Source of the DNA: an uncultured Microbacteriaceae bacterium
Lineage (GTDB): Bacteria > Actinomycetota > Actinomycetes > Actinomycetales > Microbacteriaceae
Reading direction: 5' to 3'
Assembly (NCBI GenBank): GCA_903907615.1
Contig: CAIVOR010000369.1
Coordinates: 1-31,457, forward strand
DNA length: 31,457 nt
Both the position numbers and the translations under genes were made by a program. The notes beneath the pieces are model-generated. The model was not told the origin of the DNA and did no database searches. It worked only from the letters and a program-made list of their open reading frames with translations. Below, piece after piece: positions 6,827 to 23,672 of the stretch. The first letter of the stretch is position 1. The number at the start of each line of letters is the position of its first letter.

Positions 6827-7942
6827 GTGCGCATCGGCGTTCCGGCTGAGGTAAAGAACAACGAGTTCCGCGTTGCGCTGACGCCGAGTGGTGTTCACGA
6901 CCTGGTCGCCCGGGGTCACGAGGTTATCGTTCAATCCGGTGCCGGCCGAGGCTCCAGCCTGACCGATGCCGACTTCGTGGCAGCCGGTGCTCGGGTGATC
7001 GAGTCGGCGAGCGACGTATGGGCGAGCGCCGAGCTCGTGCTCAAAGTGAAAGAGCCACAGCCCGAGGAATTCGCGCACCTGCGTGAAGACCTCGTGTTGT
7101 TTACCTATCTGCACCTGGCGGCCGAGCCCGACCTCACGCGCGCGCTGTGTGATGCCCACACCACATCCATTGCTTACGAAACCGTGCAGGCGGCCAACGG
7201 CACACTTCCGCTCCTCGCCCCGATGAGTGAGGTTGCCGGACGACTTGCTCCCCTCGTGGGCGCGCACGCCATGATGGCACCGCAGGGCGGCCCGGGTCTG
7301 CTGGTCTCCGGAGTGCCGGGTACCCACGCCGCACACGTGGTAGTTCTCGGCGGCGGTGTCGCCGGAACGAACGCCATCCAGATGGCCGTCGGAATGGGCG
7401 CCCAGGTGACCGTACTCGATACCAATCTGTCGCGATTGGCCCAGCTCGATCTCGCCTTTCATGGTCGCGTGAACACGATCGCGTCGAATGCCCTTGAGAT
7501 TGACCGCGCAGTCTGTGCGGCCGATCTCGTGGTGGGAGCCGTACTCATCGCCGGAGCAAAAGCACCCAAGCTCGTCTCGAACGAACTCGTCTCACGCATG
7601 AAGCCGGGAAGTGTCCTTGTCGACATCGCTGTGGACCAGGGCGGATGCTTTGCGGACACGCACGCGACGACGCACGCCGACCCCACGTTCGCCGTGCACG
7701 GATCCATCTTTTACTGTGTCGCCAACATGCCAGGCGCTGTGCCCCACACCTCTACCTATGCCCTGACGAACGCCACCCTGCCGTTCGTGCGTCGGGTGGC
7801 TGACCTCGGGTGGCGGGATGCGCTCAGTGGCGACGCGACCTTGCGGGCCGGTCTCAACACGTGGGCCGGTCAGGTCACGAACGCGGGCGTCGCCGAAGCA
7901 CACGACATGGCCCTCACCCCGCTGACCGACGTCTTCGCTTAG
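6827..7942 (+). CDS. ald: Alanine dehydrogenase
   Basis: MRIGVPAEVKNNEFRVALTP, VKVKEP, FTYLHLAA, PMSEVAGR, Rossmann GGGVAG, DIAVDQGG, YCVANMPGAVP. Confidence 0.97.
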   Translation: MRIGVPAEVKNNEFRVALTPSGVHDLVARGHEVIVQSGAGRGSSLTDADFVAAGARVIESASDVWASAELVLKVKEPQPEEFAHLREDLVLFTYLHLAAEPDLTRALCDAHTTSIAYETVQAANGTLPLLAPMSEVAGRLAPLVGAHAMMAPQGGPGLLVSGVPGTHAAHVVVLGGGVAGTNAIQMAVGMGAQVTVLDTNLSRLAQLDLAFHGRVNTIASNALEIDRAVCAADLVVGAVLIAGAKAPKLVSNELVSRMKPGSVLVDIAVDQGGCFADTHATTHADPTFAVHGSIFYCVANMPGAVPHTSTYALTNATLPFVRRVADLGWRDALSGDATLRAGLNTWAGQVTNAGVAEAHDMALTPLTDVFA

Positions 7943-10539
7943 CGGTCCATCACACACGTCGGTGGCAGTGCCGCGCGTTTCACGGTGTCATCCGCCTCGA
8001 GCACGACGACACCGTTTTTCAGGGGCGGCGGAATGAGGCGTGGATCCCGCCCCACATAACGGGCGGCCAAGCGGGACACACCATGCCACACCACGGGTTC
8101 GACCCTGAGGCGTCGGCGCAAGTCCTCGGAAACCGAGAGAGCCTGGTCCGACGTGAGGACATCTAAGGTTGGCGCGTCGTCGCCCGCACGGGTGACGTCA
8201 GTCCACACCTCAGGATTCTCGGTGACGACCACGGCTCGCCTTCCCGCGAGGACGTCGCCCAGTGCGAGGAGGTCGGGGTTTCTCTCGTCATCAGCGCCCT
8301 GGCCCGTGCCGCGAACCCCATCGTCGTCATGCTCCGACTTTTCCTCGACGGGGCGCAAAACCTGGACCGTGTCTCCGTCGAGCAGTCCTCGACCGGGTAT
8401 TCGCGTGTCGAAAGTGAGGCGCGTGCTCACGTGGCGCACAATCGGGCTGAGCCGCGCCTCATCCGTCGACGCCGAGAACGCGATGAACGTTCCGCGGCGA
8501 GGTCCGTCACGCGCGATGGTCTCGAGTGCCGAAATGAGGTCGTCACCGTACTCGTCGGGAGTGTCCCGAAGAATGGCATCCAGTCCGTCAACGACGATCA
8601 ACGCCGCCGGCACTCCCGCAGCACCTTTCAGGCGTCGGGCCACGGATGTCAGCACGTCCCACGCGAGCGCGGGGTGGCGAGGCACAACGACCGTCGACAA
8701 CGTGCTTCTCCCTAGGTGGTCGAGCAGAGTGGACTTGCCGGAACGCGGACCGCCCACCACCGCGAGCGATCCGTCGCGAGTCGGAGAGTAATCCAGTGCC
8801 AACCATCGCGTCGTGCGCACGTCTTGCCGAAGTCCCAGGCGGACGACCTCGGGGGCGAGAGCGTTGTGATCGAGACTGTCGGCCATGGTCCGATCCGACA
8901 GAGTGCGAGGAAGCTCAGGCCACCACAGACGCCATGCGTTCGGGCGTTCGGCCTCACTCCCCCTGCCGACGGGAACATCTCCCTCGCCTGCACGGACGCA
9001 CATCTCGGTCGCGCGCGCGAGTGTGCGGGCATCCGCACAAACCGGCAACACCCGTTCCACCTCACCCGCGCGCCGGCGGAGCAACAGCTGTCGTTCGGAA
9101 GGTTTGCCGACTGACTGCGGATGCGGCAGGGAAACTCCCAGGAGGTATCTCGCATCGTCGTCGCCCACCGGCGTCAGGCACAGTCGCGTCTGTGCGTTGA
9201 CGATGAGGTCATCGCTAAAGGCACCGGCGGCCCGCTGGGAGGCCAGCGCAAGATGCACCCCGAGTGCTCGGCCGTGGGCGGCCACGTCGGCCATGATGCG
9301 CCGGGCATCCGGTACCTGCTCGCAGAGCGCGCGATACTCGTCGACGACGATCAGCAGGCGCGGGAGGGCGCGGTCGGCGGGAACGTGGGCGATGTCAGTG
9401 CGGCCGCTCTCGCGAAGCAGCTGTTCCCGCCTCTCCATGTCGACGCGGATTCCCGAGAGAGCGCGTAGTACGTCGTCGCCGTCGAGATCGGTCGTGATGC
9501 CCGCAGAGTGCGGGAGGCCGGCCACGCGGACAAATCCCCCGCCGCCCTTGAAGTCAATGACCGCAAACCGAAAGCGCGCGGGGTCCTGCCGGGCCGCCAT
9601 GGTGGCGATGAGCGCCACCAGAGTCTCTGTCTTTCCGCTACCCGTTGCTCCGGCGATGAGAAAGTGCGGGCCGTCGTGCTCGAGGCTCAGGGTGACGCCA
9701 ACCGGACCGCTCACGTCATCCCGCCACCCCACGATTCCCGACACGTCACGAGTGGCGTCCGGGGTCAGGTCACCGGTTGATCCGGCGGCATGTGTCCGGC
9801 ACAGGTCATCGAGGGTGGGCGGCGCGTACCGCACGCTGTGGACGCGGGAGAGTTCGCGCCGGACAGCTGTGGCGTGGGCATCCGACAATTCGTCAAGAAG
9901 CACAGGCACAACATCGAGGGGCGTGCGCACATCGGTCAGGGTGGCCCAGCCGTCGTCGGCAAGGGTCACCGTGAGGGTGGTACTCGACGGAATCTCCGAC
10001 ATGTTGCGAACGGACGTGACCTCGTCACGTCGGCCCCCACCGGAATGCCACGCGCAAACGAGCGAGAGTGATCGGGATGCTCGGGCTGCGGCTGCCGATT
10101 CGCCGATAACGCACAGTCGCGAATCGAGCGGAACGAGGACAGGACGTTTGTCGCGATCAAGCCCGACGCGCACGTGTTGCGGTGACGCGGTGCGGACTGT
10201 CTCAGGACGATGGCCGCTGTCGAGCAGATCGGCGAGGCTCGGGTGCTGACGGCGGGCCTTCGTCGCCTCGCGCTCGAGTTCTTCCCTCCGTTGGGCCTCG
10301 CCCTGATCCGCCACCCGCTGCGCCTCCTCGGCGGCGGTGCGGCGCGCCGCTGCGGTCTGGCGTCGCGCATCCAGCAGGGATGCCCCCATCGCGAGGGGCC
10401 CCATCAGAGCAAACAGCATCATGACCGGCGATGACGCCACGAGCCACATGACGAGGGCAAAGCCCAGCGGCACCAGCAAAGAGAAGAGGGGAAGCGATGT
10501 GTGGTTCGGGAGTCGGCTCCGTGAACGCTGTTGCCTCAT
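7939..10539 (-). CDS. FtsK/SpoIIIE-domain ATPase of EccC/EssC type (N-terminal TM hairpin, one intact and one degenerate ATPase domain)
   Basis: TM hairpin LFSLLVPLGFALVMWLV...MMLFALMGP followed by a coiled coil; domain 1 DGPHFLIAGATGSGKT / DFKGG / IVVDEY / GRALGVHLALASQR; domain 2 GGPRSGKST / IVVDGLD. Start uncertain (ATG 10539 or GTG 10590). Confidence 0.85.
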   Translation of the reverse strand: MRQQRSRSRLPNHTSLPLFSLLVPLGFALVMWLVASSPVMMLFALMGPLAMGASLLDARRQTAAARRTAAEEAQRVADQGEAQRREELEREATKARRQHPSLADLLDSGHRPETVRTASPQHVRVGLDRDKRPVLVPLDSRLCVIGESAAAARASRSLSLVCAWHSGGGRRDEVTSVRNMSEIPSSTTLTVTLADDGWATLTDVRTPLDVVPVLLDELSDAHATAVRRELSRVHSVRYAPPTLDDLCRTHAAGSTGDLTPDATRDVSGIVGWRDDVSGPVGVTLSLEHDGPHFLIAGATGSGKTETLVALIATMAARQDPARFRFAVIDFKGGGGFVRVAGLPHSAGITTDLDGDDVLRALSGIRVDMERREQLLRESGRTDIAHVPADRALPRLLIVVDEYRALCEQVPDARRIMADVAAHGRALGVHLALASQRAAGAFSDDLIVNAQTRLCLTPVGDDDARYLLGVSLPHPQSVGKPSERQLLLRRRAGEVERVLPVCADARTLARATEMCVRAGEGDVPVGRGSEAERPNAWRLWWPELPRTLSDRTMADSLDHNALAPEVVRLGLRQDVRTTRWLALDYSPTRDGSLAVVGGPRSGKSTLLDHLGRSTLSTVVVPRHPALAWDVLTSVARRLKGAAGVPAALIVVDGLDAILRDTPDEYGDDLISALETIARDGPRRGTFIAFSASTDEARLSPIVRHVSTRLTFDTRIPGRGLLDGDTVQVLRPVEEKSEHDDDGVRGTGQGADDERNPDLLALGDVLAGRRAVVVTENPEVWTDVTRAGDDAPTLDVLTSDQALSVSEDLRRRLRVEPVVWHGVSRLAARYVGRDPRLIPPPLKNGVVVLEADDTVKRAALPPTCVMDR

Positions 10540-10616
10540 CCATCGAGATGACCACGTTGTCGGTGTTCGCCGCGTCAGGTATCCACACACGCGGGCGCGT
10601 CGACCGCGTCGGCGGG

Positions 10617-11255
10617 CTACTCAATCGTGAAGGATTGGTCTCCCATACCGACGGTCGCCCCCGGCGTCAGAATCACACGCTCCTGCGGTGCCAGGCGCTC
10701 TGCGGCAATCCCGGGCATGCTCACCACCGTGCCGTTGGCGCTTGCGAGGTCGGTCACCAACAGGCCTTCGGGCCGGGCCTCAACCTGCAGGTGCGTTTTC
10801 GACACGGTCTTCGAGGGGTCATTCACGACGATGAGGTGATCCCACGTATCGCCCGCGGATGCCACGGGCATGCGCCCGATGAGGCCGCGGCCCACCACCT
10901 GTGCGCGTTCGCCCGTGCTGAAAACAAGCGTGTAGGGGCGGACCGTGCGTGTCGGCTCCAGAGCGACCGTTTCCGAGACGACAGGGTCGTAGAGGACGTC
11001 CTCGGTCGGAATCTCGACGGGGGCACTCATCTCAGGGGCACTCACGTCAGGAATGATCGCCTCAGGGACAATCACCTCGGGGACAAGCGCATCGACAACA
11101 GCGGAGGCCGGAGGCGCGACGGTCGGAGAGCTGGTTCTCTGCGGGGCGCCGAACTCGGGAACGCTCGAACCGCACTCGCCACAGAAATAGGCTCCCTCGG
11201 GAAGGGCTTCTCCGCACACGTCGCACGTGCCTTGCTCGGTGTCCATGGTGTCCAT
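10617..11255 (-). CDS. Zinc-ribbon plus FHA domain protein
   Basis: CDVC-x10-CGEC zinc ribbon, Pro-rich linker, FHA motifs LIGRMP...VSKTH...TDLASANGT; start ATG 11255 or 11246, just after the upstream gene's stop at 11261. Confidence 0.88.
   Translation of the reverse strand: MDTMDTEQGTCDVCGEALPEGAYFCGECGSSVPEFGAPQRTSSPTVAPPASAVVDALVPEVIVPEAIIPDVSAPEMSAPVEIPTEDVLYDPVVSETVALEPTRTVRPYTLVFSTGERAQVVGRGLIGRMPVASAGDTWDHLIVVNDPSKTVSKTHLQVEARPEGLLVTDLASANGTVVSMPGIAAERLAPQERVILTPGATVGMGDQSFTIE
11021..11086. repeat. Degenerate 15-bp tandem repeat (about 4.4 units) encoding VPEVI-VPEAI-IPDVS-APEMS-AP
   Basis: gggcactcatctcag / gggcactcacgtcag / gaatgatcgcctcag / ggacaatcacctcgg / ggacaa. Confidence 0.7.
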
Positions 11256-11260
11256 GTTAG

Positions 11261-13375
11261 TTAGCGACGGCGTATGAGCGACCACACCGCCAGCCGACGC
11301 ATGAGTTTCTGTCGACGCGTCAGGCCCGTCATCAATTCGTTCTCGATGTCCTCGACCACCAACCACGCCGTGCGGGCATCGGACGCCACCAGAGCGTCAG
11401 CCGAGTATTCGGCGCGGTCGATCACGAAGGCCAACGCAGGGGCATCCCGCACCGACACTCGTGACGCGAGTTCACGGTTCGTAGTGGCGGGCGTCACGGC
11501 CAGTCGAGCATCCGTGAGAACATCCGCGACTTGATCTCGAGCACCCAAGACTCGCTTGCGCGCATCGGGTGCCGTGAGGCGACGGCGGCGACGCGAAGCT
11601 TTCGCGGCAACGATGGCGACAGGAGGGAGCAGGATGACCGCGGCAACGACCGCGAGCCACACCACAACTTCCAGGATGGCGCGGAGGATGAGCCACACCG
11701 GATCCGGTTCCTGCGTGTCTGCTTCCTCGTCGGACTGTGGCGCCTGCGCGCCCCGAATCTGAGACACGTCCGCCGGGGGCGGGTCAACGACGGACTGGGG
11801 TGGCGAGACGCGGTTGGGGTCGTCCGGCGGCGTGTCAGGAATGGGCCGAACGTCCGGCACGGGGTCAATGGCTAACCAGCCGGTGCTCGTATTGGCCTCG
11901 ACCCACGCGCGGAGGTCCGACCCGGTCACCTCGGTGGCACCCTCCGGCACGACAAAACCCACCACGACGCGTGCAGGGAAACCCACCTGCTGGGCGAGAA
12001 GGGCGGCCGCCACCGAGTACTGCTCCTCATCACCAATCATGAGCTTGTCGGTCAGCAGGGACGTGATGCGCTCGGAGGAGTGACCGCTTCGCGATGGTGC
12101 CTCGCCCACGCCACCGTGGCTGACATAACCGTTCTCGACGAGTGACCCGAGCACAGCGACCAACCGCTCCCCCGGTTCCGCCGTTGCGTCGCTGTGCGCG
12201 CTCACGTAGGCCTGCACGCCCGCGGGTTGGTCACTGACGACCGTGCGCTCGGTGCCCGGCGTTGCGGTGCTCAGATTGGCAAGATCCGTGGGGATCAGCC
12301 CAGGGCCCGACGCGCGGTAAACGAGACCCTGGGAGAGCCCGTTAAGGTCGATGGCCGTCTGCGCGGCGGGGCTGTAGTACAGCGAACCGATTCCCGAACC
12401 AGTGGTTTGCAATCCGGCAAGATCACCGCGCAGCGGCAACCACGGCCCCGTGAGCTGCTGAATCGTGATGGTGGCCGCCTCGCCGGCCACGTCGTCGGCG
12501 AGAGCAAACCCGGACTGCCGCGTAAAGTCGCCGTCGGGGGTCCACACGGAGTAGGTGACCCCGTCGTAACGCGAGAGTGTTGCGAGCGTGAGCATCTCAC
12601 CCGACTTACCCTCAGACAGCCCGAACATCGGCGTCTCCGAGAGGTCACCGACGGCGTAAGCGCGAAAGGCCGAGAGTGGCGAGGGAAGCGACGCTTCGTC
12701 AAGCACGGGTGATACGCGAGAACGCCACACATCGGGTGTGGTCGTCACGGCGAGCCCCACGCCCACCCCGACCGCTACGGCGACAAGGGTGACGCTTGCA
12801 GCGATCGCTTTTCGCGCGGCACGACCGGGCGTGCTCACGAACAGTGCCACGAGAATCACGACGACCATGGCGACGCCCGACATCACCGCAAAGTCGGCAT
12901 TTGCTGGGCCCAGCCAGATGGCGACGCACATGACGGCGATGCCGGGCAACAGGGACAGCACGCGGCGCGAGACAACCCGCGACAGAAGAACGGCCAACGC
13001 GGAGCCGACGAGAGCCAGCATGAACACCGGCACGAGCAGCGCGCCGAACGACCCGACGGGCGGACTGATGGTGACGATCTGCTTCCAGCCGTCGACGGCA
13101 CCGAATAGCAATGCTCGTTCGCCGCCGAGCGTGGGGACAATGCCCCACAGAGCCTGCTGCGGCACGGCGGCGGGGACGCCCACCACGACAAACACCACAA
13201 TCAGGCCAATCGGAAGAATCCACCACGGCCAGCGGCGGCGGACGACAAGCGCCGACACCAGGGCACCGAGGACGGTGCCCACAACAATCGCCACCACAAA
13301 CTCGGGCGTCTGAAAGACGGGCCACAGCGGAGTGAGTCCGAGCGCCACGGCGAGAACCGCAATCACGGGCATCAT
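11261..13375 (-). CDS. Polytopic membrane protein with a transglutaminase-like domain (TgpA/DUF3488-like), probably catalytically dead
   Basis: About 7-8 N-terminal TM helices; TGase-fold signature GDEEQYSVAAALLAQQVGFPARVVVGF...DLRAWVE...GWLAIDP; C-terminal TM followed by a DUF4129-like tail. Confidence 0.87.
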   Translation of the reverse strand: MMPVIAVLAVALGLTPLWPVFQTPEFVVAIVVGTVLGALVSALVVRRRWPWWILPIGLIVVFVVVGVPAAVPQQALWGIVPTLGGERALLFGAVDGWKQIVTISPPVGSFGALLVPVFMLALVGSALAVLLSRVVSRRVLSLLPGIAVMCVAIWLGPANADFAVMSGVAMVVVILVALFVSTPGRAARKAIAASVTLVAVAVGVGVGLAVTTTPDVWRSRVSPVLDEASLPSPLSAFRAYAVGDLSETPMFGLSEGKSGEMLTLATLSRYDGVTYSVWTPDGDFTRQSGFALADDVAGEAATITIQQLTGPWLPLRGDLAGLQTTGSGIGSLYYSPAAQTAIDLNGLSQGLVYRASGPGLIPTDLANLSTATPGTERTVVSDQPAGVQAYVSAHSDATAEPGERLVAVLGSLVENGYVSHGGVGEAPSRSGHSSERITSLLTDKLMIGDEEQYSVAAALLAQQVGFPARVVVGFVVPEGATEVTGSDLRAWVEANTSTGWLAIDPVPDVRPIPDTPPDDPNRVSPPQSVVDPPPADVSQIRGAQAPQSDEEADTQEPDPVWLILRAILEVVVWLAVVAAVILLPPVAIVAAKASRRRRRLTAPDARKRVLGARDQVADVLTDARLAVTPATTNRELASRVSVRDAPALAFVIDRAEYSADALVASDARTAWLVVEDIENELMTGLTRRQKLMRRLAVWSLIRRR

Positions 13376-14592
13376 GCGGTGGCTCGATTTCGGGACAGCA
13401 ACTTTGTCAGGTCATCGAGACGACCCACCGTGCCCACGGTCAAGCGACCGGAGGAACGCAAACGCGGCGCAGACTCGACGTCGCAGCGAAGTGCGACCAC
13501 CTCAACACCCGCGCCGAAGGGCAGCGAAGCCTGTTCGATATCAGAGAATCCGGCCACAGAGCCGGTGACGGCGAAGACCACCGAGACGTCGGTCGCCACT
13601 CCGGCCGCCAGCGGCGTGAGGCCGCCCATGGGCAGACTAGAAGCGGTGAGCGTGATTCCCGCCACGTCATCGAGGAGTCTGGCCGGTGACACGCTCGTGA
13701 GAACATCCATAGTTTCTTCGTTCTGCAGGTTGGCGCGCCCCGCGCGTACCGGCCGGGCGACCACGCTCGACCGGGAAACAACGAACATCACGTCACGACT
13801 GTCGCGGAGCGCCCGCACACCGAGCGACGCCGCCGTCGATACGGCCAGCTCGAATTCAACGTCGTCGACATAAGCCTCACGCCGCGTGTCGAGCAAGATC
13901 AGCATGCGCGAGCGTCGGGTCTGCTCATACTGGCGAATCATGAAACGTCCGGTCTTGGCGCTCGACTTCCAGTGGATGTGTCGACGGTCGTCGCCGGGCA
14001 CGTACTCGCGAAGCGCGTGGAACGACAGGTCCGAGTCGGTCAGGTCGCGGGACGCTTCTCCCTCGAGGTCGCGCACAAATCCGGCGCTCAGGGGCGGCAA
14101 TGTGGCGGTGTCGGGATGCACCACAACCTTGGCCGTGCCGGGAAGCGTGACCGAACGGCGATAGAGGCCAAAGGGGTCGCGCCGGACCACGGAGACCGGA
14201 CCGACGGGAATTACCGTTCGTCGAGGGGCCTCCACCACGAGCAGGGTCTCGTGAGTCACGCCAACGGACAGGCGTGGCACGCGCTCGGTGCGGGTGCCCG
14301 AGCCCACCGGAATGTCGAGGTCGGTGCCGGATGACGTGCGCCGCGTTTCATTGGTGAGTCGCAGCCTGACCTCAGCGGATGTGCCCGGAACGACCCGGAT
14401 CACGCTGGCAGCGAATGACACCGACAGCAGTGCGCGCCGGCGGAGAACGGTCAGGCCGAGAAGAGCCACCAGCCCGAGCGCGCAACCCAGCATGAGCGGT
14501 TCCCGCCACCCCAAGGTCACGCCCATCACGAGGCACACGACGATGACCGGCCAGACAACCCAGCCGGTAACCGTCACCCACCTCAGAGACAT
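13372..14592 (-). CDS. DUF58 family protein (MoxR partner, VWA-like), N-terminal TM hairpin
   Basis: LREYVPGDDRRHIHWKSSAKTGRFMIRQYE signature, then LLDTR...FELAVSTAASL. Confidence 0.92.
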   Translation of the reverse strand: MSLRWVTVTGWVVWPVIVVCLVMGVTLGWREPLMLGCALGLVALLGLTVLRRRALLSVSFAASVIRVVPGTSAEVRLRLTNETRRTSSGTDLDIPVGSGTRTERVPRLSVGVTHETLLVVEAPRRTVIPVGPVSVVRRDPFGLYRRSVTLPGTAKVVVHPDTATLPPLSAGFVRDLEGEASRDLTDSDLSFHALREYVPGDDRRHIHWKSSAKTGRFMIRQYEQTRRSRMLILLDTRREAYVDDVEFELAVSTAASLGVRALRDSRDVMFVVSRSSVVARPVRAGRANLQNEETMDVLTSVSPARLLDDVAGITLTASSLPMGGLTPLAAGVATDVSVVFAVTGSVAGFSDIEQASLPFGAGVEVVALRCDVESAPRLRSSGRLTVGTVGRLDDLTKLLSRNRATA

Positions 14593-14611
14593 GTTGTGCG
14601 CTTTCGTTGTA

Positions 14612-15589: not shown

Positions 15590-15617
15590 GGTGCATATTC
15601 TCTTCTGCTGAGGGCGG

Positions 15618-18600
15618 TTATCCGCCGAAGGTGGGTACGGGAACAATGGTCGACCCGCCGGGGGCGCCGCAGACGCCCTCGGCGGTGCAACCGCGAACGG
15701 TGATGGTGAAGGGGTCGGTCAGGTCGAGCGTGACGGCGTCGTAGATAAACGAACCGCTCGTGGTGACATCAGGAATGAGATCAACCCACGTCGACCCCAC
15801 AAGAACCTGCCACGTGGCCACCAGAGCGGCAGCGCTGTCAACCGTGGGAGTCACGACCGTAATGCGTGTGGTGGTCGCGTCAACGGCGGTGAGACTCGCC
15901 GAGTCATAGGACGCCGTCCCCGGTGCGGTGGTCACCGTCACACTCGTGACGTCGCCCGCGCATCCCCAGGGAGTCACAGCGTAGACGGCAAACCAATAGG
16001 TGCCGTCGGCGAGGGTGGTAGCGTCGCTCCACGACGTCGACGTGGTCGAGTCGGTGGCGCCGGTGACGGGATCTGCGGGACACGTGGCCGACATCTCGCT
16101 CGAACTGCGCCACACGTAGTACGTGGGGGCATCGGGTGAGCCGCGTCGGTCGGCCGCCGACCAGGACAGGTTGAGGCCGGAGGCGTCAACACTCAGGCCG
16201 CCGCCCCACACCGGCGGACCGGCGGCGGTCACCGTGGCCGACGTTTGCCAATTCCAGTCGAAGGTGTCGGAGTCGTTGACGGCCGCCACACGCACCGAAT
16301 ATGCGGCGCCGGCCCGACCCCAGAAAGTGGGAATCGACGTGTCGTTGGCCGCCGCACGCAGGTCGGCCACCAGTCCGCCATCCTCGTAAATCTCGACCCG
16401 GTAGCCGCTCACGGGGCTGGCTCCCGCGGGAGCCGTGACGGCCGACCAGGAGACATCGATACCGCCGCCGGCCGGATGCGCACTCGTGAAGGCAACGACG
16501 GAAGCGGTCACCTCGGCGGGTGCGGGCGGAGAACGATCTGCCCCGAGCGGTTCACTCCAGGGACTCGGTGCCGACGAACCGACGGCATTGACCGCGACCA
16601 CCTGGAATCGATATTTGGCGCCGGTCGGCAATCCGTCCAGTGTGCACACGGTGGCCGCACAGGTGTGCGTGTACCCGCCATCGCTCGTCACGATGTAGTC
16701 GCTGATCGGAGAGTTATTGCCCGCGGGTGCCGCCCAGCTGAGCGTCAGCTCGCCGTTCACGAATCCGGCCGCGCGCACGGGCGTGGTGGGGGCATCCGGG
16801 ACATCCTGAATGGCAATCGTAATCACGCCCCACGCGTAACGGTCGGGATCATCCGTGGCATCGGCCACTTCATATTGGAGCGTGACGTCGGCCGCCCGAG
16901 CCGACTCCGCAACGACCACATTCAGGCGCGACTTGTCCGGTGAGGGAAGTACCGTCACGCCCTCGGGGAGGTCGGCGGCGTCGGTTCCGCGGACGGCGAT
17001 GACACGCAGGGGCGTTTTGGGGAAGGGGTTGCTCGCTTGGTCGTTTGCAAGGACATCGACCTCAACGGAGGATCCGCGGCGCACGGTGGCGGTGTCCGCC
17101 TGCGGCACGGGCAGCGGTCGCGTGGACGGGACAATCGTGATGAGCACGGTTCCCGCCTTTCCCTGGTTTTCCGCGTCGGAGGGGGTGACCTCGAGCGCGA
17201 GGCGTGATCCCTTAGCCACGCCGGGGGCGGCCGTGATGGTCAGCTCCGTACCCTCGACGACGGTTGTGATTCCGTCGGTGTTTCCCCGCAACGCGAACGA
17301 GAGCTCCCCCACGTTCTTGGCATAGGGATAGCGCGTGATTTTGACCAGATCAATCTTCTTGGTCGAGTCGGGTTCAAGGTCAATCTGCGTATCCTGCAGA
17401 ATCGGCGGTTGGTTTCCGCGGGGCGTCACCTGGATGGGCAGCACAATCACCGCGCGACGACCGTTGGGGTCGTCGGCGCTGGATCCGTCGGTGACCTCAA
17501 ACGACAGCGACGCCGGGCCGAAGTAAAGATTCTCACTGGTGAACTCAATGGTGCGATCGTCGACGGCCAGTGCGTCACCGTTGGCGTGGGTCGCACGAAC
17601 CGTGTCGGTGGAGGTCAGTCGAACCTGCTTTCCCCCGGCGGCCGTCACGTAATCATTGATGTTGATGCGCACGGTTTGCTCACTCTGCACCGAAATCGGT
17701 TTGGTCCCGAGCTTGACCTGCGGTCGAGCGTCATCCGTGCCGGGAACCCAGACGAACGCGTAGGAGACAATCGTGGGGTCGTCCGGGTGAGTGACGCTGA
17801 ACGGAATAACCTGCGATTTTTCACCGACCGTGACTCGAATCTTGCTGCCCGACTCCACCCTCGCGTTACCCGGATATCCGGGCACGATGCTCGGCGTCAG
17901 CGTGCGAATATCGCCATCGGCCCAGAAACCGTTGGCGAGGACATCCACAACAACCTCGCCGCGCGTGAGAATCTCGCTGAGCGCCACCACGCTATCGCTG
18001 AGCACGGGTGCGTTGAGCGGCGCGTCAGCGCGCACATCGAGGGTGATGAAGCTCGAGGCCGTGCCGGCCACATCGTTGGCGATTTCGTAGATCAGGCCGT
18101 ATGTGCCCGGGGTGTCGGGGACCGTGATGTGCACCTGATTGGCCACAATCGTTGCGGTGACGTCGGGCGTCGTGGGCTCAACGGACGTCACCGTCAACGT
18201 ACGACGCGCCGGATCGCTGTCGTTTGCCAGCGGGTCAACCACGATGGTGCGACCCGGACGGACGACCACGGTGTCGGGCGCGGCGGAGGGCGAACTGGAG
18301 CCGGTCGACTCGGTGGCGATGCCCACGCGGATTGTGCCGCTGGCTTCCGCACCGAAGCCGTCCATCACGGAATACTCAAACACGTCGGTCTCGCTGGCGT
18401 AGGGACCCGCCTCGTACTCGATCCACTCAGCGCCCACCGAGGTCACGGCCCCCTTGGTGGGGTTTGACGCGAGACCGGCCAGTTGAACGTTGTCGCCGTC
18501 GGGATCAGCCTTGCCCAGGGGAACCGGAATCCGCACGGTTGTTCCGGCGACCACGCGGGCCGTGATTGTGGGGGGCTGCGGGGCACGGTTACTCGCGGCG

Positions 18601-21203
18601 TCTCGAGGGCGGACCGTGATACTCACCACGCCAGTGGCCCATGCGCCGTTATCGGCGATCACGCGATAAGCGGCCGAGTAGGTGCCCGCTTCCGTCGGAG
18701 CAAGGTAACGCAGCTGGTTTGTCGTCGCGAACAGGAGGCCGGCACCCTCCGGTACCTGCTGGTCGAGCTGTGGCGCGAGGGTAAGCACACCCCCCGACGG
18801 GTGTATGTCGTTGGCGAGCACGGGGATGTCCACCACGCCTCCCGCCCGGACCGTTGCGGAATCGGGCACCGCGATCGGAGGAAGAGCCATGGTGGGCGCG
18901 ATCGCTTCGACGACCGCAACCTGCCCCTCGGCGGTGGCGACACCGTTTGTGACCCGATACGAAATGGTGTGCACTCCGGTCAGCGGGCGCAGGAGCGTGA
19001 CCCGAATCAGGTGGTAGTCCACCACCTCGGCCCGAACGTCGGCGGTATTTCCCCCCGCACTGAGACCCGTGACCACGAGCACGCCGCCCGCTGGATCGAC
19101 GTCGGTGGCCGTCACATCAACGGTCCTCGTCTGTTGCAGGCCCACAACGATCTGGTGCGCGGCGGTGATCGGTACGGCGCTGGCGTTGGGTCGCTCCACC
19201 ACATCAACGCGTACGAGACCCGAACCGTTGCTGCGCCCATCCGTCACGGCGTAGCTCACGTAGTAGGTGCCGATACGGGAGGGCGTCACACTAAACGTGA
19301 AGTCGTCAAAGTGCGGAACGATGTCCAGGCCAGAAACGCTGGGCACACCGGTCAGGGTGACGGCGCTCGCCCCGCCTCGGACGTGTTCAGCGGGGGAAAT
19401 CGTGAGAGCCTCATCGGGATAAGCCATAACGGCAAAGGGGTCCGCGCGCACGGGAACCGCTGAACCGGGCTTGACCGCGACCGCCACCGAGCCGAATCCG
19501 CTGGCCACGCCATCGGACACCTCGAGATCAATCCGGACGGCGCTGCTCGAGGCACCGGAGTCGATATAGGAGAGCCGGCCACCGGGCGTGAAGCTCACGA
19601 CACCGGCCGAACTCGTGGTCGCTTGGGCCAGATGGATCGGGTCTCCGTCCGGGTCCATCCAATCGCCCAGCACACTCAGTGTTGTCTGGCCGCCGGAAGC
19701 AACATCCGCTTCGGTCTGCCGTACCTGAACGGGAGCCGAGTTTTCTCCGTCGCTTCGCACGGTAACCGTCACAAATGCGCTCGCCTGCCCCCCGCGTCCG
19801 TCGTTGATTGTGTACGCAAACTCCACCGTTCCCGCCGCCTCGGGGGTCAAGAAAATGCGCACCGACGTTCGATCCGGCGCAACATCCACCGTTCCGGAAG
19901 TGGTGGGTACGGGCGATACGTCCGTGACCACGAGCACATCCCCGTTGGGATCGAAGTCGTTGAGGAGCACGGGAAGGAAAGAGATACGGCCGGGGCGAGC
20001 GCCAAACGCGTCGTCGCGGGCCACGGGCGGTTGCGGCTGCGGGTCGAGGGTTTCGGTACCCGAGTTATCGGCCACCACGGTTTGTTCGGTGTTCTGCTGG
20101 CTGAGGAGGTCATCCCAGTTGTCGATGAGGTGGACACCGTCTTGCAGCGTCCACGAGGCACCGGTCTGAACATCGTTGAGCGCCAGCACCCCGGCCCGCT
20201 CACGAATCTGCAGGGTGGCGCCCGTGGCCATCCCGTCGGCCTCAATGGTCACGGGATCCATGCCCGGACACTGCGTAAAGACGGCGCCCTGAGACCAGGC
20301 GGCAAAGAGGCAGCCGTCCTGCTCGCGCGGAGAAGCGGGCCGCCCCAGGGAGCCCTGGGTAAGGAGGGGCGTCACGCCACCGCCGAGCGACACCCGTGTC
20401 AACCCTCCCGTGAAAGCCACGATGGCGTCGGTGGCACTGCGCGATGGCTGGGCCAGCACGGCCTGATCGGGCGTGATGTCACTATCTGCCAGGTTCACCT
20501 GACGACCCGGGAGAAAGAGAGTGCCCGCAGTTGCGTCGAGTACCGCCCAGGCACTGCCCACCACTGTCACGCTCACCTGCTCCACCGAGAGCGGCGTCGG
20601 GAGGGAGACGGTCTGTGGAGCGGTCGCCTGCGAGACGTCGACGGTGGTGACCGTTGAGTCCTTCACGCTCACACCCACGAGCAGTCCATCGGGCTCCACG
20701 GCTATCTGTGACTTCGGACCCACGGAGAACCGCGCCGGAGTGCGGGCATCGAATGTCCCGATGGACTTGAGCGGCACCACCCACACATCACCGGTCTCGG
20801 TGGCGTGCATGACAACGAAATCGTTGATCAGTTGCACCTCGGTGGCGCCTGCGGGAAGTGCCACGGGCGTGAGGAGTGTGTTTGTGCGTTCATCGACCGG
20901 CGTGATGGTGTGCTTGGCATCGTTCACCAAAAAGACCGAGGACGGCGACTGCAGAACGTCGATGAGATCGGTCTGGGCGGGCACAATACTTCCGAGCTGC
21001 TGGATGCGTGTGTTGGCCCGACCCAATGCCTCGCGTTCTTGACTGGTCACCCACACGGCACCGTCGGTGGCCGTGACCCGGGCTGCCGAAAAACCGGAAG
21101 CAAGCACGATTCCGACGATGAGCGCAAGAACGGCCACCACGGACACCAGTGCCGGAACGAGACTCCGGAGGCGTCGTGTGGTCGAACCCGCCGCGCCGCT
21201 CAC
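15618..21203 (-). CDS. Giant surface protein (1861 aa): N-terminal signal/anchor, beta-rich N-domain, about 11 Ig/cadherin-like repeats, about 3 fibronectin type III domains
   Basis: N-terminal TM VPALVSVVAVLALIVGIVLA; repeats such as PVARDD...VLLNDFDPNGD, PIAVPDSATV...VLAND, APDTVVV...PLANDSDP, PQADTATV...DVLAND; FN3 VPDAPTTP...LSWAAP...YRFQVVAVNAVG; paired Cys. Confidence 0.9.
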   Translation of the reverse strand: MSGAAGSTTRRLRSLVPALVSVVAVLALIVGIVLASGFSAARVTATDGAVWVTSQEREALGRANTRIQQLGSIVPAQTDLIDVLQSPSSVFLVNDAKHTITPVDERTNTLLTPVALPAGATEVQLINDFVVMHATETGDVWVVPLKSIGTFDARTPARFSVGPKSQIAVEPDGLLVGVSVKDSTVTTVDVSQATAPQTVSLPTPLSVEQVSVTVVGSAWAVLDATAGTLFLPGRQVNLADSDITPDQAVLAQPSRSATDAIVAFTGGLTRVSLGGGVTPLLTQGSLGRPASPREQDGCLFAAWSQGAVFTQCPGMDPVTIEADGMATGATLQIRERAGVLALNDVQTGASWTLQDGVHLIDNWDDLLSQQNTEQTVVADNSGTETLDPQPQPPVARDDAFGARPGRISFLPVLLNDFDPNGDVLVVTDVSPVPTTSGTVDVAPDRTSVRIFLTPEAAGTVEFAYTINDGRGGQASAFVTVTVRSDGENSAPVQVRQTEADVASGGQTTLSVLGDWMDPDGDPIHLAQATTSSAGVVSFTPGGRLSYIDSGASSSAVRIDLEVSDGVASGFGSVAVAVKPGSAVPVRADPFAVMAYPDEALTISPAEHVRGGASAVTLTGVPSVSGLDIVPHFDDFTFSVTPSRIGTYYVSYAVTDGRSNGSGLVRVDVVERPNASAVPITAAHQIVVGLQQTRTVDVTATDVDPAGGVLVVTGLSAGGNTADVRAEVVDYHLIRVTLLRPLTGVHTISYRVTNGVATAEGQVAVVEAIAPTMALPPIAVPDSATVRAGGVVDIPVLANDIHPSGGVLTLAPQLDQQVPEGAGLLFATTNQLRYLAPTEAGTYSAAYRVIADNGAWATGVVSITVRPRDAASNRAPQPPTITARVVAGTTVRIPVPLGKADPDGDNVQLAGLASNPTKGAVTSVGAEWIEYEAGPYASETDVFEYSVMDGFGAEASGTIRVGIATESTGSSSPSAAPDTVVVRPGRTIVVDPLANDSDPARRTLTVTSVEPTTPDVTATIVANQVHITVPDTPGTYGLIYEIANDVAGTASSFITLDVRADAPLNAPVLSDSVVALSEILTRGEVVVDVLANGFWADGDIRTLTPSIVPGYPGNARVESGSKIRVTVGEKSQVIPFSVTHPDDPTIVSYAFVWVPGTDDARPQVKLGTKPISVQSEQTVRININDYVTAAGGKQVRLTSTDTVRATHANGDALAVDDRTIEFTSENLYFGPASLSFEVTDGSSADDPNGRRAVIVLPIQVTPRGNQPPILQDTQIDLEPDSTKKIDLVKITRYPYAKNVGELSFALRGNTDGITTVVEGTELTITAAPGVAKGSRLALEVTPSDAENQGKAGTVLITIVPSTRPLPVPQADTATVRRGSSVEVDVLANDQASNPFPKTPLRVIAVRGTDAADLPEGVTVLPSPDKSRLNVVVAESARAADVTLQYEVADATDDPDRYAWGVITIAIQDVPDAPTTPVRAAGFVNGELTLSWAAPAGNNSPISDYIVTSDGGYTHTCAATVCTLDGLPTGAKYRFQVVAVNAVGSSAPSPWSEPLGADRSPPAPAEVTASVVAFTSAHPAGGGIDVSWSAVTAPAGASPVSGYRVEIYEDGGLVADLRAAANDTSIPTFWGRAGAAYSVRVAAVNDSDTFDWNWQTSATVTAAGPPVWGGGLSVDASGLNLSWSAADRRGSPDAPTYYVWRSSSEMSATCPADPVTGATDSTTSTSWSDATTLADGTYWFAVYAVTPWGCAGDVTSVTVTTAPGTASYDSASLTAVDATTTRITVVTPTVDSAAALVATWQVLVGSTWVDLIPDVTTSGSFIYDAVTLDLTDPFTITVRGCTAEGVCGAPGGSTIVPVPTFGG

Positions 21204-22162
21204 GCCCTACCTCGACGACGCCACGGTCGGCGCCGATCGGGAACAACGTTCGCGAGCTGTGTCTCCCCCCCCGTGGGATCAACGGCATCAAAGTAAAGGG
21301 GCACATCAATCTGTGTTTGCGAAATCCCCAATTCCGCTTCGATCGACTGAAGGTCGCGCGCCAGGGCCAAGGCCGACAGCGGGCGTGTCAGGGGGTCGGG
21401 TGACAGGCCGCGCTCGAGCAGTCGGCGCAGCGAATCGGGAACATCCACCCGATCGATGTCGGTCGGTTTGCCCTTGAGGATACGCCCGGCGATAACTCCA
21501 GGTGCGTTGTCGCGACCCGGGCGCTCGAACGGCGTGCGCTGAGCCAGCAACGAAAACAGCGTGGCGACCAACGAGAAAATGTCGGTGGCCACCGTTCCGG
21601 TCGTGTGCTGGGCGATAATTTCGGGAGCCGACCACGGCACGCTCAAGCCCTGTGCATCCCCGCGATCCGACGCGGCCACCGTGGCGGCGATGCCAAAGTC
21701 ACTGAGCACCGAGTGCCCGTAGGTGGTGAACAGGATGTTGGCGGGCTTCACGTCGCGGTGGAGCACGTTGGCGCGGTGTGCGGTTTCCAACGCCGACGCC
21801 ATCCGCACGCCCGTCCGCAGTACCTCAGCGACCGGGATTCGTGTCGTGCGGTAGGTGTCGCCGAAGCCCGACGGACAAAACTCCATCACGAGGTAGAGAC
21901 GACCGTCAGCGGCCACCCCCGCGTCAAAGACCGTGAGGATGGCCGGATGCGTGCTCACGTGTGCCATAAGACGAGACTCGGCCACAAACATTTGAGTTGC
22001 CCGAGGATTTACTGCATCCGACAGCAGTACTTTCACCGCTACCTGGCGCCGAGGCAGATCCTGCTCGTAGAGAAAGACATCGGCAAAACCTCCCGAGCCG
22101 AGCGCACGCACGAACGAAAACCCGTTGAGAACCGGTGGATCCGTGGGAATGCGCCGAGACAC
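21200..22162 (-). CDS. Hanks-type Ser/Thr protein kinase, cytoplasmic (no TM or sensor domain)
   Basis: LGSGGFADV, VAVK, HRDVKPAN, DFGIA, PWSAPE, DIFSL; ends with a basic tail PDRRRPWRRRGRA. Confidence 0.95.
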   Translation of the reverse strand: MSRRIPTDPPVLNGFSFVRALGSGGFADVFLYEQDLPRRQVAVKVLLSDAVNPRATQMFVAESRLMAHVSTHPAILTVFDAGVAADGRLYLVMEFCPSGFGDTYRTTRIPVAEVLRTGVRMASALETAHRANVLHRDVKPANILFTTYGHSVLSDFGIAATVAASDRGDAQGLSVPWSAPEIIAQHTTGTVATDIFSLVATLFSLLAQRTPFERPGRDNAPGVIAGRILKGKPTDIDRVDVPDSLRRLLERGLSPDPLTRPLSALALARDLQSIEAELGISQTQIDVPLYFDAVDPTGGETQLANVVPDRRRPWRRRGRA

Positions 22163-22166
22163 GAGA

Positions 22167-22967
22167 TTAGCCCATCTGACCGGGCGGAGTTACGGCGAGC
22201 ACATCAATCACGATGACGGTGATGTTGTCGCGGCCACTGTTTCCCAGCGCGTGCTTCAGCAACTCGCTGGCGGCTTCGTCAGCGGTAGCCGTGGATTCGA
22301 GAAAATGCTCGATTCCCACATCGGTGATTTCCTTGGTGAGCCCATCGGAGCACAACAACAAGCGCGAGCCGGCGGAAACCGGCACCATGTCGACGTCGGG
22401 AATCGGTGGCTCCATCAGTCCCACGGCCCGTGTGATCACATTCGCATGCGGGTGGATGTCTGCTTCGTCGCGCGTAATGGAGCCGGCGTCGACCAGTTGC
22501 TGGACGACCGAGTGGTCACGCGTGAGTTGCTCCAGCTCACCGTCAACCAGGGCGTAGACGCGCGAATCCCCGATGTTGAAAACCGCCCACTCGAGTCCGC
22601 TCTTCGACAGCACCAAGGCAGCGCCCGTGACCGTGGTACCGGCCGAGCGCTGGTCATCGGTGACCTGTTTGCCCAGATCGTCGACGGCGCGTTCGAGGGC
22701 CGGCTGGATGTCGTCGATGCGGGCAAAACCGTCGCTGACGAGTTCCGCCAAGCGTGTGACGACGGCTCCACTCGCAAGATCACCGGCCGAATGTCCCCCC
22801 ATGCCGTCGGCCACGGCAAACACCGGGCAGGCGACGACAAAGCTGTCCTCGTTAGCTGAGCGGTGCAGTCCGACATCGGTCGCCGCTGCCCACGAAATGG
22901 TGACCGTGGCGCCGGTAGCGGAATCGCGCACGGTGTGCCCCGTGGTGTTGACTCCGATGGCGGTCAC
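22167..22967 (-). CDS. PP2C/PPM family Ser/Thr phosphatase
   Basis: TDVGLHRSANEDS, VADGMGGH, GTT, IGDSRVY, QLTRDHS, LLCSDGL, DNIT. Confidence 0.95.
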   Translation of the reverse strand: MTAIGVNTTGHTVRDSATGATVTISWAAATDVGLHRSANEDSFVVACPVFAVADGMGGHSAGDLASGAVVTRLAELVSDGFARIDDIQPALERAVDDLGKQVTDDQRSAGTTVTGAALVLSKSGLEWAVFNIGDSRVYALVDGELEQLTRDHSVVQQLVDAGSITRDEADIHPHANVITRAVGLMEPPIPDVDMVPVSAGSRLLLCSDGLTKEITDVGIEHFLESTATADEAASELLKHALGNSGRDNITVIVIDVLAVTPPGQMG

Positions 22968-23011
22968 GAACAGTCACTCCCCTAAAGATGAGATGCCCCC
23001 GCTGCGAGGCC

Positions 23012-23557
23012 TCAGGCGTGAGGTGCCGGTTCAGCGGGGATCACCATAATTCTACCGCTGTGCCCAAATTCCACGGTTGCCTCGCCGGTCGTCGTGTAGG
23101 TCTCTCGCGAACCGAGGCGTCGCGGAGTCTGGCCCGGCACGCGCACGCGTGTTCCGTTGGCCGACCCGAGGTCGGTCACGACGACGCCGAGCCCTACCTG
23201 CTCGAGCATCACATGCGACGCCGACACTTCCCGATCGTCGCTCGGCCACGAGAGCAGCAACACCCGGTCGTTGGGGCCCAACGGCGTGCGCGGAGCGCGC
23301 CCCAGCACGATGGGGCGGTGCAGCGTGAACTCCTGACCGCCGGGCTCACGCAGTCGCGCGCAGGCGTCCGGATTCGGCGCGCTCGAGACTCGGGACACCA
23401 GCGACACCTCGGACAGGTCATCAACGACGCGACCTCCGCCCGGGGATGCGCCCGCGAGGATTGTCGATTCCTCGATGATCACGGTGTCGTCCGGAGGACT
23501 CATCCGGGTCGATTCGGTGCTCAGTCGGGTCGCGTCATCCCACTCGTCGCCCACCAT
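23012..23557 (-). CDS. FHA domain protein with an acidic Thr-rich N-terminal extension
   Basis: FHA motifs VLGRAP...VSASH...TDLGSANGT. Confidence 0.88.
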   Translation of the reverse strand: MVGDEWDDATRLSTESTRMSPPDDTVIIEESTILAGASPGGGRVVDDLSEVSLVSRVSSAPNPDACARLREPGGQEFTLHRPIVLGRAPRTPLGPNDRVLLLSWPSDDREVSASHVMLEQVGLGVVVTDLGSANGTRVRVPGQTPRRLGSRETYTTTGEATVEFGHSGRIMVIPAEPAPHA

Positions 23558-23563
23558 GTACCT

Positions 23564-23569
23564 ACTTTA
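23564..23569 (-). promoter_or_regulatory. Putative -10 element (TAAAGT) heading the nine-gene operon (leaderless)
   Basis: TAAAGT-aggtac-ATG(23557). Confidence 0.6.
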
Positions 23570-23595
23570 TTGCGCGGCAGACTCCGCATGTTTAT

Positions 23596-23624
23596 TTGCT
23601 TGCCATCACGGGGCTTGGCAGAAT
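23596..23624 (+). promoter_or_regulatory. Putative sigma70-type promoter of the aminotransferase gene (TTGCTT-N17-CAGAAT)
   Basis: -35 at 23596-23601 and -10 at 23619-23624 with a 17-nt spacer; SD GGAG upstream of ATG 23673. Confidence 0.5.
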
Positions 23625-23672
23625 CAAGGGAAGCGGAACGGCCCCGCGACCCACGCAGGCCGACGGAGAAAA

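Follow-up and report, generated by a model that had tools for sequence, protein, structure and literature searches.

The epibiont sensing and response (Esr) pathway of Schaalia odontolytica and the PFNA cluster of Bifidobacterium are the described systems closest to a nine-gene operon in an uncultured Microbacteriaceae bacterium. The operon lies on a contig of 31,457 nucleotides (assembly GCA_903907615.1, contig CAIVOR010000369.1), the whole of which was analysed and is referred to below as the window. The Esr pathway comprises EsrA, a MoxR, a vWA protein, the transglutaminase (TGase)-like EsrD, the kinase EsrE, the phosphatase EsrF, and EsrG, an output protein with an FHA domain (Wang, Colautti ... 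Mougous, bioRxiv 10.64898/2026.09.08.750141, September 2026; hereafter Wang et al., 2026). EsrA is a filament of the cell surface that carries a Sec signal and, after an N-terminal β-propeller of the WD40 type, roughly 14 immunoglobulin (Ig)-like repeats. An esrA1 deletion mutant no longer responds to a Saccharibacteria epibiont in its proteome or transcriptome, infection leads to EsrA-dependent phosphorylation of EsrG1 at Thr152, and an esrD1 mutant releases EsrA1 into the supernatant (Wang et al., 2026). The Esx-linked Esr2 governs export of the substrates AesA and AesB post-translationally; Esr1 acts on transcription, not on Esx. Of 3502 Esr pathways, which are found mainly in Actinomycetales and Propionibacteriales, 40% adjoin genes of the esx type, and EsrG occurs in at least 13 architectures, including Zn-finger-FHA types and EccC fusions (Wang et al., 2026).

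The PFNA cluster of Bifidobacterium has the order pkb2-fn3-aaa-atp-duf58-tgm-(prpC-hyp-fha) (Nezametdinova et al., 2018; PMC8430577; PMC6803598). It is co-transcribed in B. longum, where MoxR is a substrate of Pkb2, and it has been presented as unique to bifidobacteria and tied to cytokine sensing (PMC8430577). Two further reports describe in vitro binding of tumour necrosis factor α (TNF-α) by B. longum FN3 fragments (PMC10688814; PMC12607495). The Esr preprint makes no mention of PFNA or Bifidobacterium (Wang et al., 2026). A third relevant system is T7SSd, a type VII secretion system (T7SS) of Actinomycetota that comprises a WXG100 protein, an ATPase bearing an FHA domain, a kinase in the membrane, a small transmembrane (TM) protein, and an Ig-like envelope protein of about 1650 aa (Garrett et al., Microlife 2024, PMC11217815). 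Its components are named TsdA, TsdC, TsdD, TsdH, as well as TsdI.

The operon in the window had been predicted from its sequence to be a new system. It is instead best explained as a compact variant of an Esr/PFNA-type pathway, a kind described between 2018 and 2026 as PFNA and as Esx-linked Esr. The PFNA-like character that the original prediction also proposed is borne out by homology and gene order. The five-gene PFNA core of B. actinocoloniiforme DSM 22766 is collinear and homologous with that of the window (tblastn, E 1e-21 to 4e-106 across all five genes), with identities of 28% over 1579 aa for the giant/FN3 protein (E 4e-106), 48% for MoxR, 42% for the kinase, 34% for DUF58, and 32% for the TGase-like protein and Tgm. 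The window and PFNA also differ. In the window, the genes for the phosphatase and for one FHA protein are found upstream of that for the kinase, whereas prpC, hyp, and fha lie downstream of tgm in PFNA. The window also adds a Zn-ribbon-FHA gene and an EccC-like ATPase gene, and Pkb2 has a TM helix that the window kinase lacks. Homologous clusters occur in Nocardioides, Janibacter melonis, Sanguibacter, Sinomonas, Subtercola, Herbiconiux, and Microbacterium, as well as in B. actinocoloniiforme. This wider distribution contradicts the confinement of PFNA to bifidobacteria.

Composition of the operon

Nine minus-strand open reading frames (ORFs), all co-oriented, span 23557-7939. Pfam supports a domain call for each of the nine proteins, and both the domains and the gaps between the genes agree with those first predicted. 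The features of the operon, in the order of transcription, are the following.

23558..23671, minus strand: intergenic region, presumed operon promoter, shared with the divergent aminotransferase gene
23012..23557, minus strand: FHA protein, FHA1 (Pfam FHA)
22167..22967, minus strand: PP2C-type Ser/Thr phosphatase, EsrF / PrpC-like (Pfam PP2C_2, E 1.6e-12)
21200..22162, minus strand: Ser/Thr protein kinase, EsrE / Pkb2-like, 320 aa (Pfam Pkinase, E 1e-37)
15618..21203, minus strand: giant surface protein, EsrA / FN3-like, 1861 aa (Big_9 x7, Cadherin_4/5, fn3 x2)
20124..21062, minus strand: predicted β-propeller domain of the giant protein, residues ~48-360 (AlphaFold2 and Foldseek)
14612..15589, minus strand: MoxR-family AAA+ ATPase, 325 aa when started at ATG 15589 (AAA_3, E 1.5e-62; AAA_lid_2)
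13372..14592, minus strand: DUF58 protein, corresponding to the 'vWA' protein paired with MoxR in Esr (Pfam DUF58)
11261..13375, minus strand: TgpA-like polytopic membrane protein, EsrD / Tgm-like (TgpA_N and Transglut_core)
10617..11255, minus strand: Zn-ribbon, Pro/Ala/Val-rich linker, and FHA protein, 212 aa, EsrG-like (Zn_Ribbon_1 and FHA)
7939..10539, minus strand: short EccC-family ATPase, here called EccS, 866 aa, alternative GTG at 10590 (FtsK_SpoIIIE)

The giant protein contains a single hydrophobic segment, at residues 15-33, and a hydrophobicity reading gives none at the C-terminus. The N-terminal segment is of the Sec type, and no T7SS signal is present. Residues 1-430 were modelled with AlphaFold2 on 17 orthologues, and the predicted local distance difference test score (pLDDT) exceeds 90 over residues 48-360. 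The top Foldseek matches of this region in the PDB are the YVTN propeller 1l0q, NirF, BamB, and WD40 proteins (probability 1.00), and Pfam returns no match over it. The N-terminus is therefore modelled as a β-propeller placed straight after the sole hydrophobic segment and followed by an Ig-like stalk. The protein is 28-44% identical over about 1600-1870 aa to its counterparts in related clusters, the Bifidobacterium FN3 protein included.

Three proteins of the operon form a MoxR, DUF58, and TGase-like set. MoxR carries the Walker A motif GTGKT and the Walker B motif DEIN and is the most conserved component, with 57-69% identity to other actinobacterial clusters. The DUF58 protein has N-terminal TM segments at residues 6-24 and 32-50, and its gene is the only one of its kind found in the source genome (88% complete). 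The TGase-like protein has about six N-terminal TM segments and one more at 570-588. Its catalytic Cys and His are replaced by E448 and R489, respectively, so that GDEEQY stands for G-x-C-E-Q-Y and DLRAW for D-x-H-A-W; of the triad, only the Asp (DPxP) is kept. The TGase core (window 11861-12040) was compared across loci of every Esr/PFNA-type cluster sampled. The Cys position is taken by D, A, G, or Q in a further 18 clusters of several families and by S in B. actinocoloniiforme Tgm, which thus shares the missing Cys with the window protein. All 80 of the 80 named Microbacteriaceae loci have D there and keep the His. About half of the clusters sampled retain the His, and the E-Q-Y after the Cys position is invariant. 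Judged by these residues, the TGase-like protein is probably a pseudo-enzyme, without the catalytic Cys in every relative sampled. The pseudo-transglutaminase proposed for the window alone can accordingly be extended to all of these relatives. The loss of the Cys argues against canonical transglutaminase chemistry for EsrD and Tgm, and it bears on the hypothesis that EsrD anchors EsrA covalently (Wang et al., 2026).

The remaining core genes encode a phosphorylation module. The kinase has all of its motifs (VAVK, HRD, DFG, and APE) and is soluble, stopping within a basic juxtamembrane stretch without a TM helix. Its orthologues in two other Microbacteriaceae genera (G013 and G015) extend to a TM helix and an ectodomain of about 90 aa. 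The TM-less form is kept in five other genomes of the genus (82-98% identical, ORFs of 329-335 aa) and is therefore no artefact; the membrane anchor has been lost throughout the genus. PP2C has an intact active site (NED, DGMGG, GDS, SDG, and DN) and is 42-56% identical to the phosphatases of related clusters. Both FHA domains retain the phosphothreonine-binding Arg, Ser, and Asn. These residues lie in GR, SxxH, and NG in FHA1, which has orthologues at the equivalent position in G013 and G015. In the Zn-ribbon-FHA protein, both CxxC...CxxC and, within the FHA domain, GR, SKTH, and NG stay unchanged across seven orthologues. Its homologue in other families adds an RDD membrane domain.

A divergent class-III aminotransferase gene and a convergent alanine dehydrogenase gene flank the operon, so the block comprises exactly nine genes. 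The intergenic gaps are, from 5' to 3', 44, 4, -4, 28, 19, -4, 5, and 77 (or 26) nt, with starts placed at 15589 for MoxR, 11255 for the Zn-ribbon-FHA protein, and 10539 for the ATPase; the smaller last value applies to the GTG at 10590. The stop codon of the kinase gene overlaps the start of the giant-protein gene. A -10-like TAAAGT lies 6 nt ahead of the ATG at 23557, where a leaderless start is plausible from the sequence reading. A consensus scan of the operon found no promoter or terminator above chance, and none at 23558..23671, which counts neither for nor against a single transcript.

The source assembly is 1.58 Mb, and the host genome is estimated at about 1.6-1.8 Mb, that of a free-living freshwater bacterium. 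Named homologues support its placement in the Microbacteriaceae. In a public run search, the operon sequence is present in DNA runs from lake-water and freshwater metagenomes, and no RNA run had a match. The source organism is a planktonic lake bacterium, in line with the non-gut origin first supposed.

The short EccC-family ATPase

EccS is 866 aa long according to the gene callers' records, which start it at 10539. Its phmmer matches in the PDB are T. curvata EccC (4nh0, 1.3e-40), YukB (1.3e-24), EccC5 (2.3e-24), and FtsK (1.3e-10). A full-length AlphaFold2 model (mean pLDDT 82) has 4nh0, 4n1a, 4lya, and 5fv0 as its top Foldseek matches, EccC coming first and EssC after it. EccS belongs to the EccC/EssC family rather than to FtsK or TraB, and the EccC-like nature predicted for this gene is upheld by both sequence and fold.

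The EccC of T7SSa (4nh0 and mycobacterial EccC5) and the EssC/YukB of T7SSb have 1300-1500 aa and a layout of three ATPase domains (D1-D3), which EccS does not share. A domain map was drawn by alignment against the 1525-aa FHA-EccC of genome G014. EccS retains the N-terminal TM hairpin, the stalk helix, D1, a weak D2, and a C-terminal domain of about 110 aa, whereas the FHA domain and D3, with the third P-loop, are missing. Its DUF region is reduced to about 110 aa, against about 300 aa in full EccC. The D1 Walker A (GxTGSGKT) and Walker B (DE) motifs are intact, as in EccC and EssC, and invariant in 30 homologues. D2 is degenerate; the P-loop GGPRSGKS is kept, but DDLD or DG replaces DE, leaving no catalytic Glu. 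A D1-domain tree places the short forms together in one strongly supported, long-branched group (100/99), and EccS is therefore a diverged paralogue and not the family's standard Esx motor. The FHA-EccCs encoded beside Esr cores intermix on short branches with those beside WXG100 genes. Both the short and the FHA-bearing forms occur in G013 and G015; the source genome has only the short one.

EccC and EssC are encoded with WXG100 proteins and membrane partners, and no such neighbours were found at the EccS locus. The operon and adjoining genes in the window contain no WXG100 or other esx gene, and no EccC-family gene besides EccS was found in the 88%-complete source genome. The sole WXG100 gene found there is an orphan on a 4.5-kb contig, C161 (L060:2418-2705, minus strand), where its neighbours are groEL on one side and a HAMP histidine kinase gene on the other. 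Five Microbacteriaceae genomes, among them genomes with a full FHA-EccC/WXG100 locus, yielded no EccB (PF05108), which therefore cannot serve as a test for a T7SS in this family. The Esx membrane partners in Microbacteriaceae appear to be undescribed proteins. The standard Esx locus of the family, as seen in G013 (C1:2664000-2680000), encodes a 1500-aa FHA-EccC, four proteins without a Pfam match (427, 211, 206, and 282 aa), and a WXG100 protein. No homologue of these four was found in the source genome at its 88% completeness. A complex prediction with EccS residues 100-866 and the Zn-ribbon-FHA protein scored 0.00, which counts neither for nor against binding.

Conservation and linkage of the core to EccC

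The nine genes occur in identical order in other Microbacteriaceae genera (G013, G015, Agromyces hippuratus, and one metagenome contig) and in all six congeneric genomes whose contigs permit a check. This arrangement is conserved far more than chance would allow. In every cluster of the window type, the TGase-like gene and EccS have the Zn-ribbon-FHA gene between them. In other clusters, both of this family and of others, the core is joined to an FHA-EccC of about 1500 aa with an N-terminal FHA domain and three P-loops (Pfam, L027). Fusions among relatives comprise this FHA-EccC and, in the list of homologues, Zn-ribbon-EccC and FHA-EccC entries of the Rosetta-stone kind.

At least four gene orders that combine the core with EccC were seen in a neighbourhood survey. 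One runs giant-MoxR-DUF58-TGase, a Zn-ribbon-RDD-FHA fusion, PP2C, an X-FHA fusion, kinase, Y, and FHA-EccC. Another begins with PP2C, X-FHA, kinase, and Y and continues with giant-MoxR-DUF58-TGase and FHA-EccC. A third reads kinase-giant-MoxR-DUF58-TGase-ZnFHA with a convergent EccC gene, and the window's own nine-gene order is the fourth. EccC-linked clusters were seen in Microbacteriaceae, Nocardioides, Janibacter, and Sinomonas. The linkage thus outlasts several rearrangements across families, which agrees with the functional tie between ATPase and core that had been predicted.

The strength of this linkage was tallied at loci not selected for proximity, by counting those with an EccC-family gene no more than 10 kb from the TGase-like gene of the cluster. 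Such a gene is present at 10 of 24 loci among relatives of the source genome, at 4 of 9 in a class-wide sample, and at 32 of 80 named loci. A rough chance expectation, based on two or three FtsK-family genes per 3-4 Mb genome, is about 2%. The linkage is real but not obligatory. The gene-neighbourhood survey put forward with the original prediction therefore supports co-occurrence of the FtsK-like gene with the core, at about 40% of loci and well over chance, but not a constant association, as about 60% of loci lack it. Regarding the reach of the samples, a homologue search with the TGase-like protein returned only Microbacteriaceae, and a scan of public genomes with the TGase alignment returned only close Microbacteriaceae and one Sinomonas, without naming Schaalia or Bifidobacterium. 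B. actinocoloniiforme was recognised from an exact match of a protein.

The two parts are also found separately. Three Microbacteriaceae genomes (G008, G009, and G024) have a short EccC gene in the same syntenic position, which is close to dxr and downstream of the atp operon, with the sensing core missing. In G008 and G009, the cluster's PP2C gene lies directly upstream of it. The pattern in these three genomes resembles a deletion of the kinase-to-ZnFHA genes.

Several further observations concern the related clusters. Protein Y, of about 269 aa and without a Pfam match (L027:7625-8434, G014), is conserved right after the kinase in most clusters that are not of the window type, and its gene precedes that of the giant protein or of FHA-EccC; the window has no Y. 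The idea that EccC follows Y in every named locus was dropped, since only those 32 of the 80 have an EccC match and in about 28 Y is followed by 2.6-4.3 kb of different sequence. Two paralogous clusters of the Esr type are present in many Microbacteriaceae (80 named loci, L061-L140). In the first, that of the window, the short EccC gene lies close to dxr and to the atp operon. The second has the order giant-MoxR-DUF58-TGase-ZnRDD-FHA-PP2C-X-FHA-kinase-Y and is often followed by FHA-EccC. Two congeneric genomes, G007 (C12:13084-25423) and G006 (C264), have a second, more distant TGase-like gene and a kinase gene on one contig. This kinase is 49% identical, with an ORF of 405 aa, and may belong to a second Esr-type cluster. 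No second cluster of this type was found in the source genome.

Proposed pathway and relation to described systems

The operon most probably encodes a surface-sensing phosphothreonine pathway of the Esr/PFNA type and of the Esx-linked, 'Esr2-like' kind. In this pathway, the giant protein would be the sensor and not cargo, projecting from the membrane and detecting a surface or contact cue. The TgpA-like protein, the membrane-anchored DUF58 protein, and the cytoplasmic MoxR would hold or remodel the giant protein and relay the signal inward. The soluble kinase and PP2C would set the phosphorylation state of FHA1 and the Zn-ribbon-FHA protein, and the latter would then switch the adjacent EccS, whose D1 is intact. 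This last step is proposed because of the adjacency of the two genes, the FHA-EccC and Zn-ribbon-EccC fusions in relatives, and the model of the preprint. A role in sensing surfaces or cell contact, which had been suggested from the sequence, fits the experimental work on Esr (Wang et al., 2026).

Several points weigh against this reading. EccS is kept without the core in G008, G009, and G024, and some 60% of cores are without a nearby EccC, which means that either part can function without the other. With neither the FHA domain nor D3, by which EccC recognises its substrate, and with its position on a long branch, EccS may have no role as a secretion motor. A search for Esx partner genes in the source genome (88% complete) found none. 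The kinase has no membrane segment, which leaves no evident route for a surface signal to reach it. Finally, the match to Esr is one of architecture, together with the homology that the window shares with PFNA and with further actinobacterial clusters; direct orthology plays no part in it.

Some of these points suit a reading of the locus as two separate modules kept adjacent by inherited synteny. An eight-gene cassette would signal to transcription or to MoxR clients, as the action of Esr1 on transcription and not on Esx might suggest, and EccS would be independent and possibly a degenerating paralogue. The presence of EccS without the core at the same site, its long-branched clade apart from the working FHA-EccCs, and its loss of the FHA domain, D3, and most of the DUF domain are all in keeping with this, and the surrounding genes are syntenic within Microbacteriaceae too. 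However, shared synteny does not explain why FHA-EccC is joined to the core in different orders in other families. PP2C directly upstream of EccS in G008 and G009 points to a tie with the phosphorylation module. The place of the Zn-ribbon-FHA gene is constant in window-type clusters, and the invariant catalytic motifs of D1 indicate that the gene is not decaying. Such a separation is distinctly unlikely. A bolder proposal, tentative and on balance unlikely, concerns these genome-streamlined freshwater Microbacteriaceae and makes EccS, with an active D1 but neither D3 nor FHA and as the one EccC-family gene of the genome, an integral output or assembly ATPase of the sensor complex instead of a regulated Esx motor. 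Together with the Cys-less TgpA-like protein and DUF58, it would form a minimal EccC-based machine of a kind not recognised before, and the TGase of all Esr/PFNA systems would be a non-catalytic scaffold. If so, the giant sensor would be held non-covalently and not cross-linked.

The original prediction favoured a phosphorylation-gated envelope machine whose EccC-like motor would assemble, display, or export the giant Ig/FN3 protein, with MoxR-DUF58 as chaperone and the TGase-like protein as scaffold. Such a machine is close to T7SSd, and the giant protein could alternatively serve it as a conduit across the wall. The ATPase is indeed of the EccC family and genetically linked to the core, T7SSd pairs an FHA-ATPase and a membrane kinase with an Ig-like protein of about 1650 aa proposed to span the envelope (PMC11217815), and a TGase-like protein without its nucleophile would fit a scaffold. 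Export by this motor nevertheless does not hold up well. The giant protein has its own Sec-type segment and no T7SS signal, and most loci, Bifidobacterium included, have the core and giant protein without a nearby EccC. EccS itself is without D3. In Schaalia, moreover, the giant protein is a sensor upstream of phosphorylation, and its retention needs the TGase-like protein and not EccC. This machine is improbable as an account of the operon. A PFNA-like module for communication with a host, in which the FN3 protein binds host cytokines and mediates epithelial adhesion, is hardly credible here. Its basis is the collinear, homologous core and the TNF-α binding by FN3 fragments reported for B. 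longum (PMC10688814; PMC12607495), but the source organism is a planktonic lake bacterium, and the spread of the cluster through soil and water Microbacteriaceae, Nocardioides, Janibacter, and Sinomonas makes a cytokine role untenable as its general function.

The sensing pathway of the Esr/PFNA type has implications beyond this locus. Three literatures, on PFNA 'cytokine-sensing', on Esr, and on kinase/FHA-linked type VII variants, cover overlapping pieces of one widespread actinobacterial system. A free-living carrier from a lake argues that its general function is the sensing of surfaces or contact and not communication with a host. Freshwater Actinomycetota co-occur with abundant Patescibacteria. 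A putative role of the window locus in defence against epibionts, suggested by analogy, would be ecologically relevant in that setting. A variant with a soluble kinase, split FHA proteins, and a two-domain EccC could also help to dissect the route of the signal to the ATPase.

Among described systems, one that is also close is the MoxR-DUF58-TgpA triad, known from Pseudomonas aeruginosa TgpA and from mycobacterial moxR operons (PMC12067865). The window shares its three genes and the TgpA layout, in which the polytopic TgpA_N membrane domain comes before a domain with the transglutaminase fold. The active type is defined by a Cys-His-Asp triad, which the window protein does not keep, and the three genes are embedded in a sensor and phospho-relay operon, unlike the plain triad. 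The ternary conflict systems with MoxR, vWA, and β-propeller components (Kaur et al., 2020, PMC7159879) were considered and rejected as a match; that paper does not describe the cluster, and the authors of the Esr work concur.

T7SSd resembles the window in combining an EccC/EssC-type ATPase, a Ser/Thr kinase, control by FHA domains, and a huge Sec-dependent Ig-like envelope protein. However, the window locus fails most of the defining features of T7SSd. It has no WXG100 gene, its FHA domains are on separate proteins, its kinase lacks a TM helix, and it has no TsdH-like gene. TsdI has a C-terminal TM helix, whereas the giant protein of the window has none and is anchored N-terminally. MoxR, DUF58, the TGase-like protein, and PP2C all fall outside the definition of T7SSd. 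Relatives of the window cluster in other families do carry FHA-EccC and TM-anchored kinases.

Esr is the system with which the window can be compared part by part. At the level of domains, every feature of Esr has a counterpart in the window, but there are also differences. The ATPase of the window is a short, diverged EccC paralogue without FHA or D3, the locus has no WXG100 or esx genes, the kinase has no membrane anchor, and two FHA proteins are present but no pseudophosphatase-FHA protein of the EsrG1 type. The TgpA-like protein belongs to the fold family of EsrD with the catalytic Cys and His replaced, and covalent anchoring by the canonical chemistry would therefore be impossible there. 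The other parts correspond. The giant protein has the layout of EsrA, with an anchor or secretion segment followed by a predicted β-propeller and Ig-like repeats. The MoxR and vWA-type partner of Esr have counterparts in MoxR and the DUF58 protein (assigned by Pfam), EsrE and EsrF in the kinase and PP2C with their intact motifs, and EsrG in the two FHA proteins, one with an N-terminal Zn ribbon. As in Esr2, the core is encoded beside an EccC gene, and the taxonomic range of Esr agrees with that of the surveyed clusters in Microbacteriaceae, Janibacter, Sanguibacter, Sinomonas, and Nocardioides.

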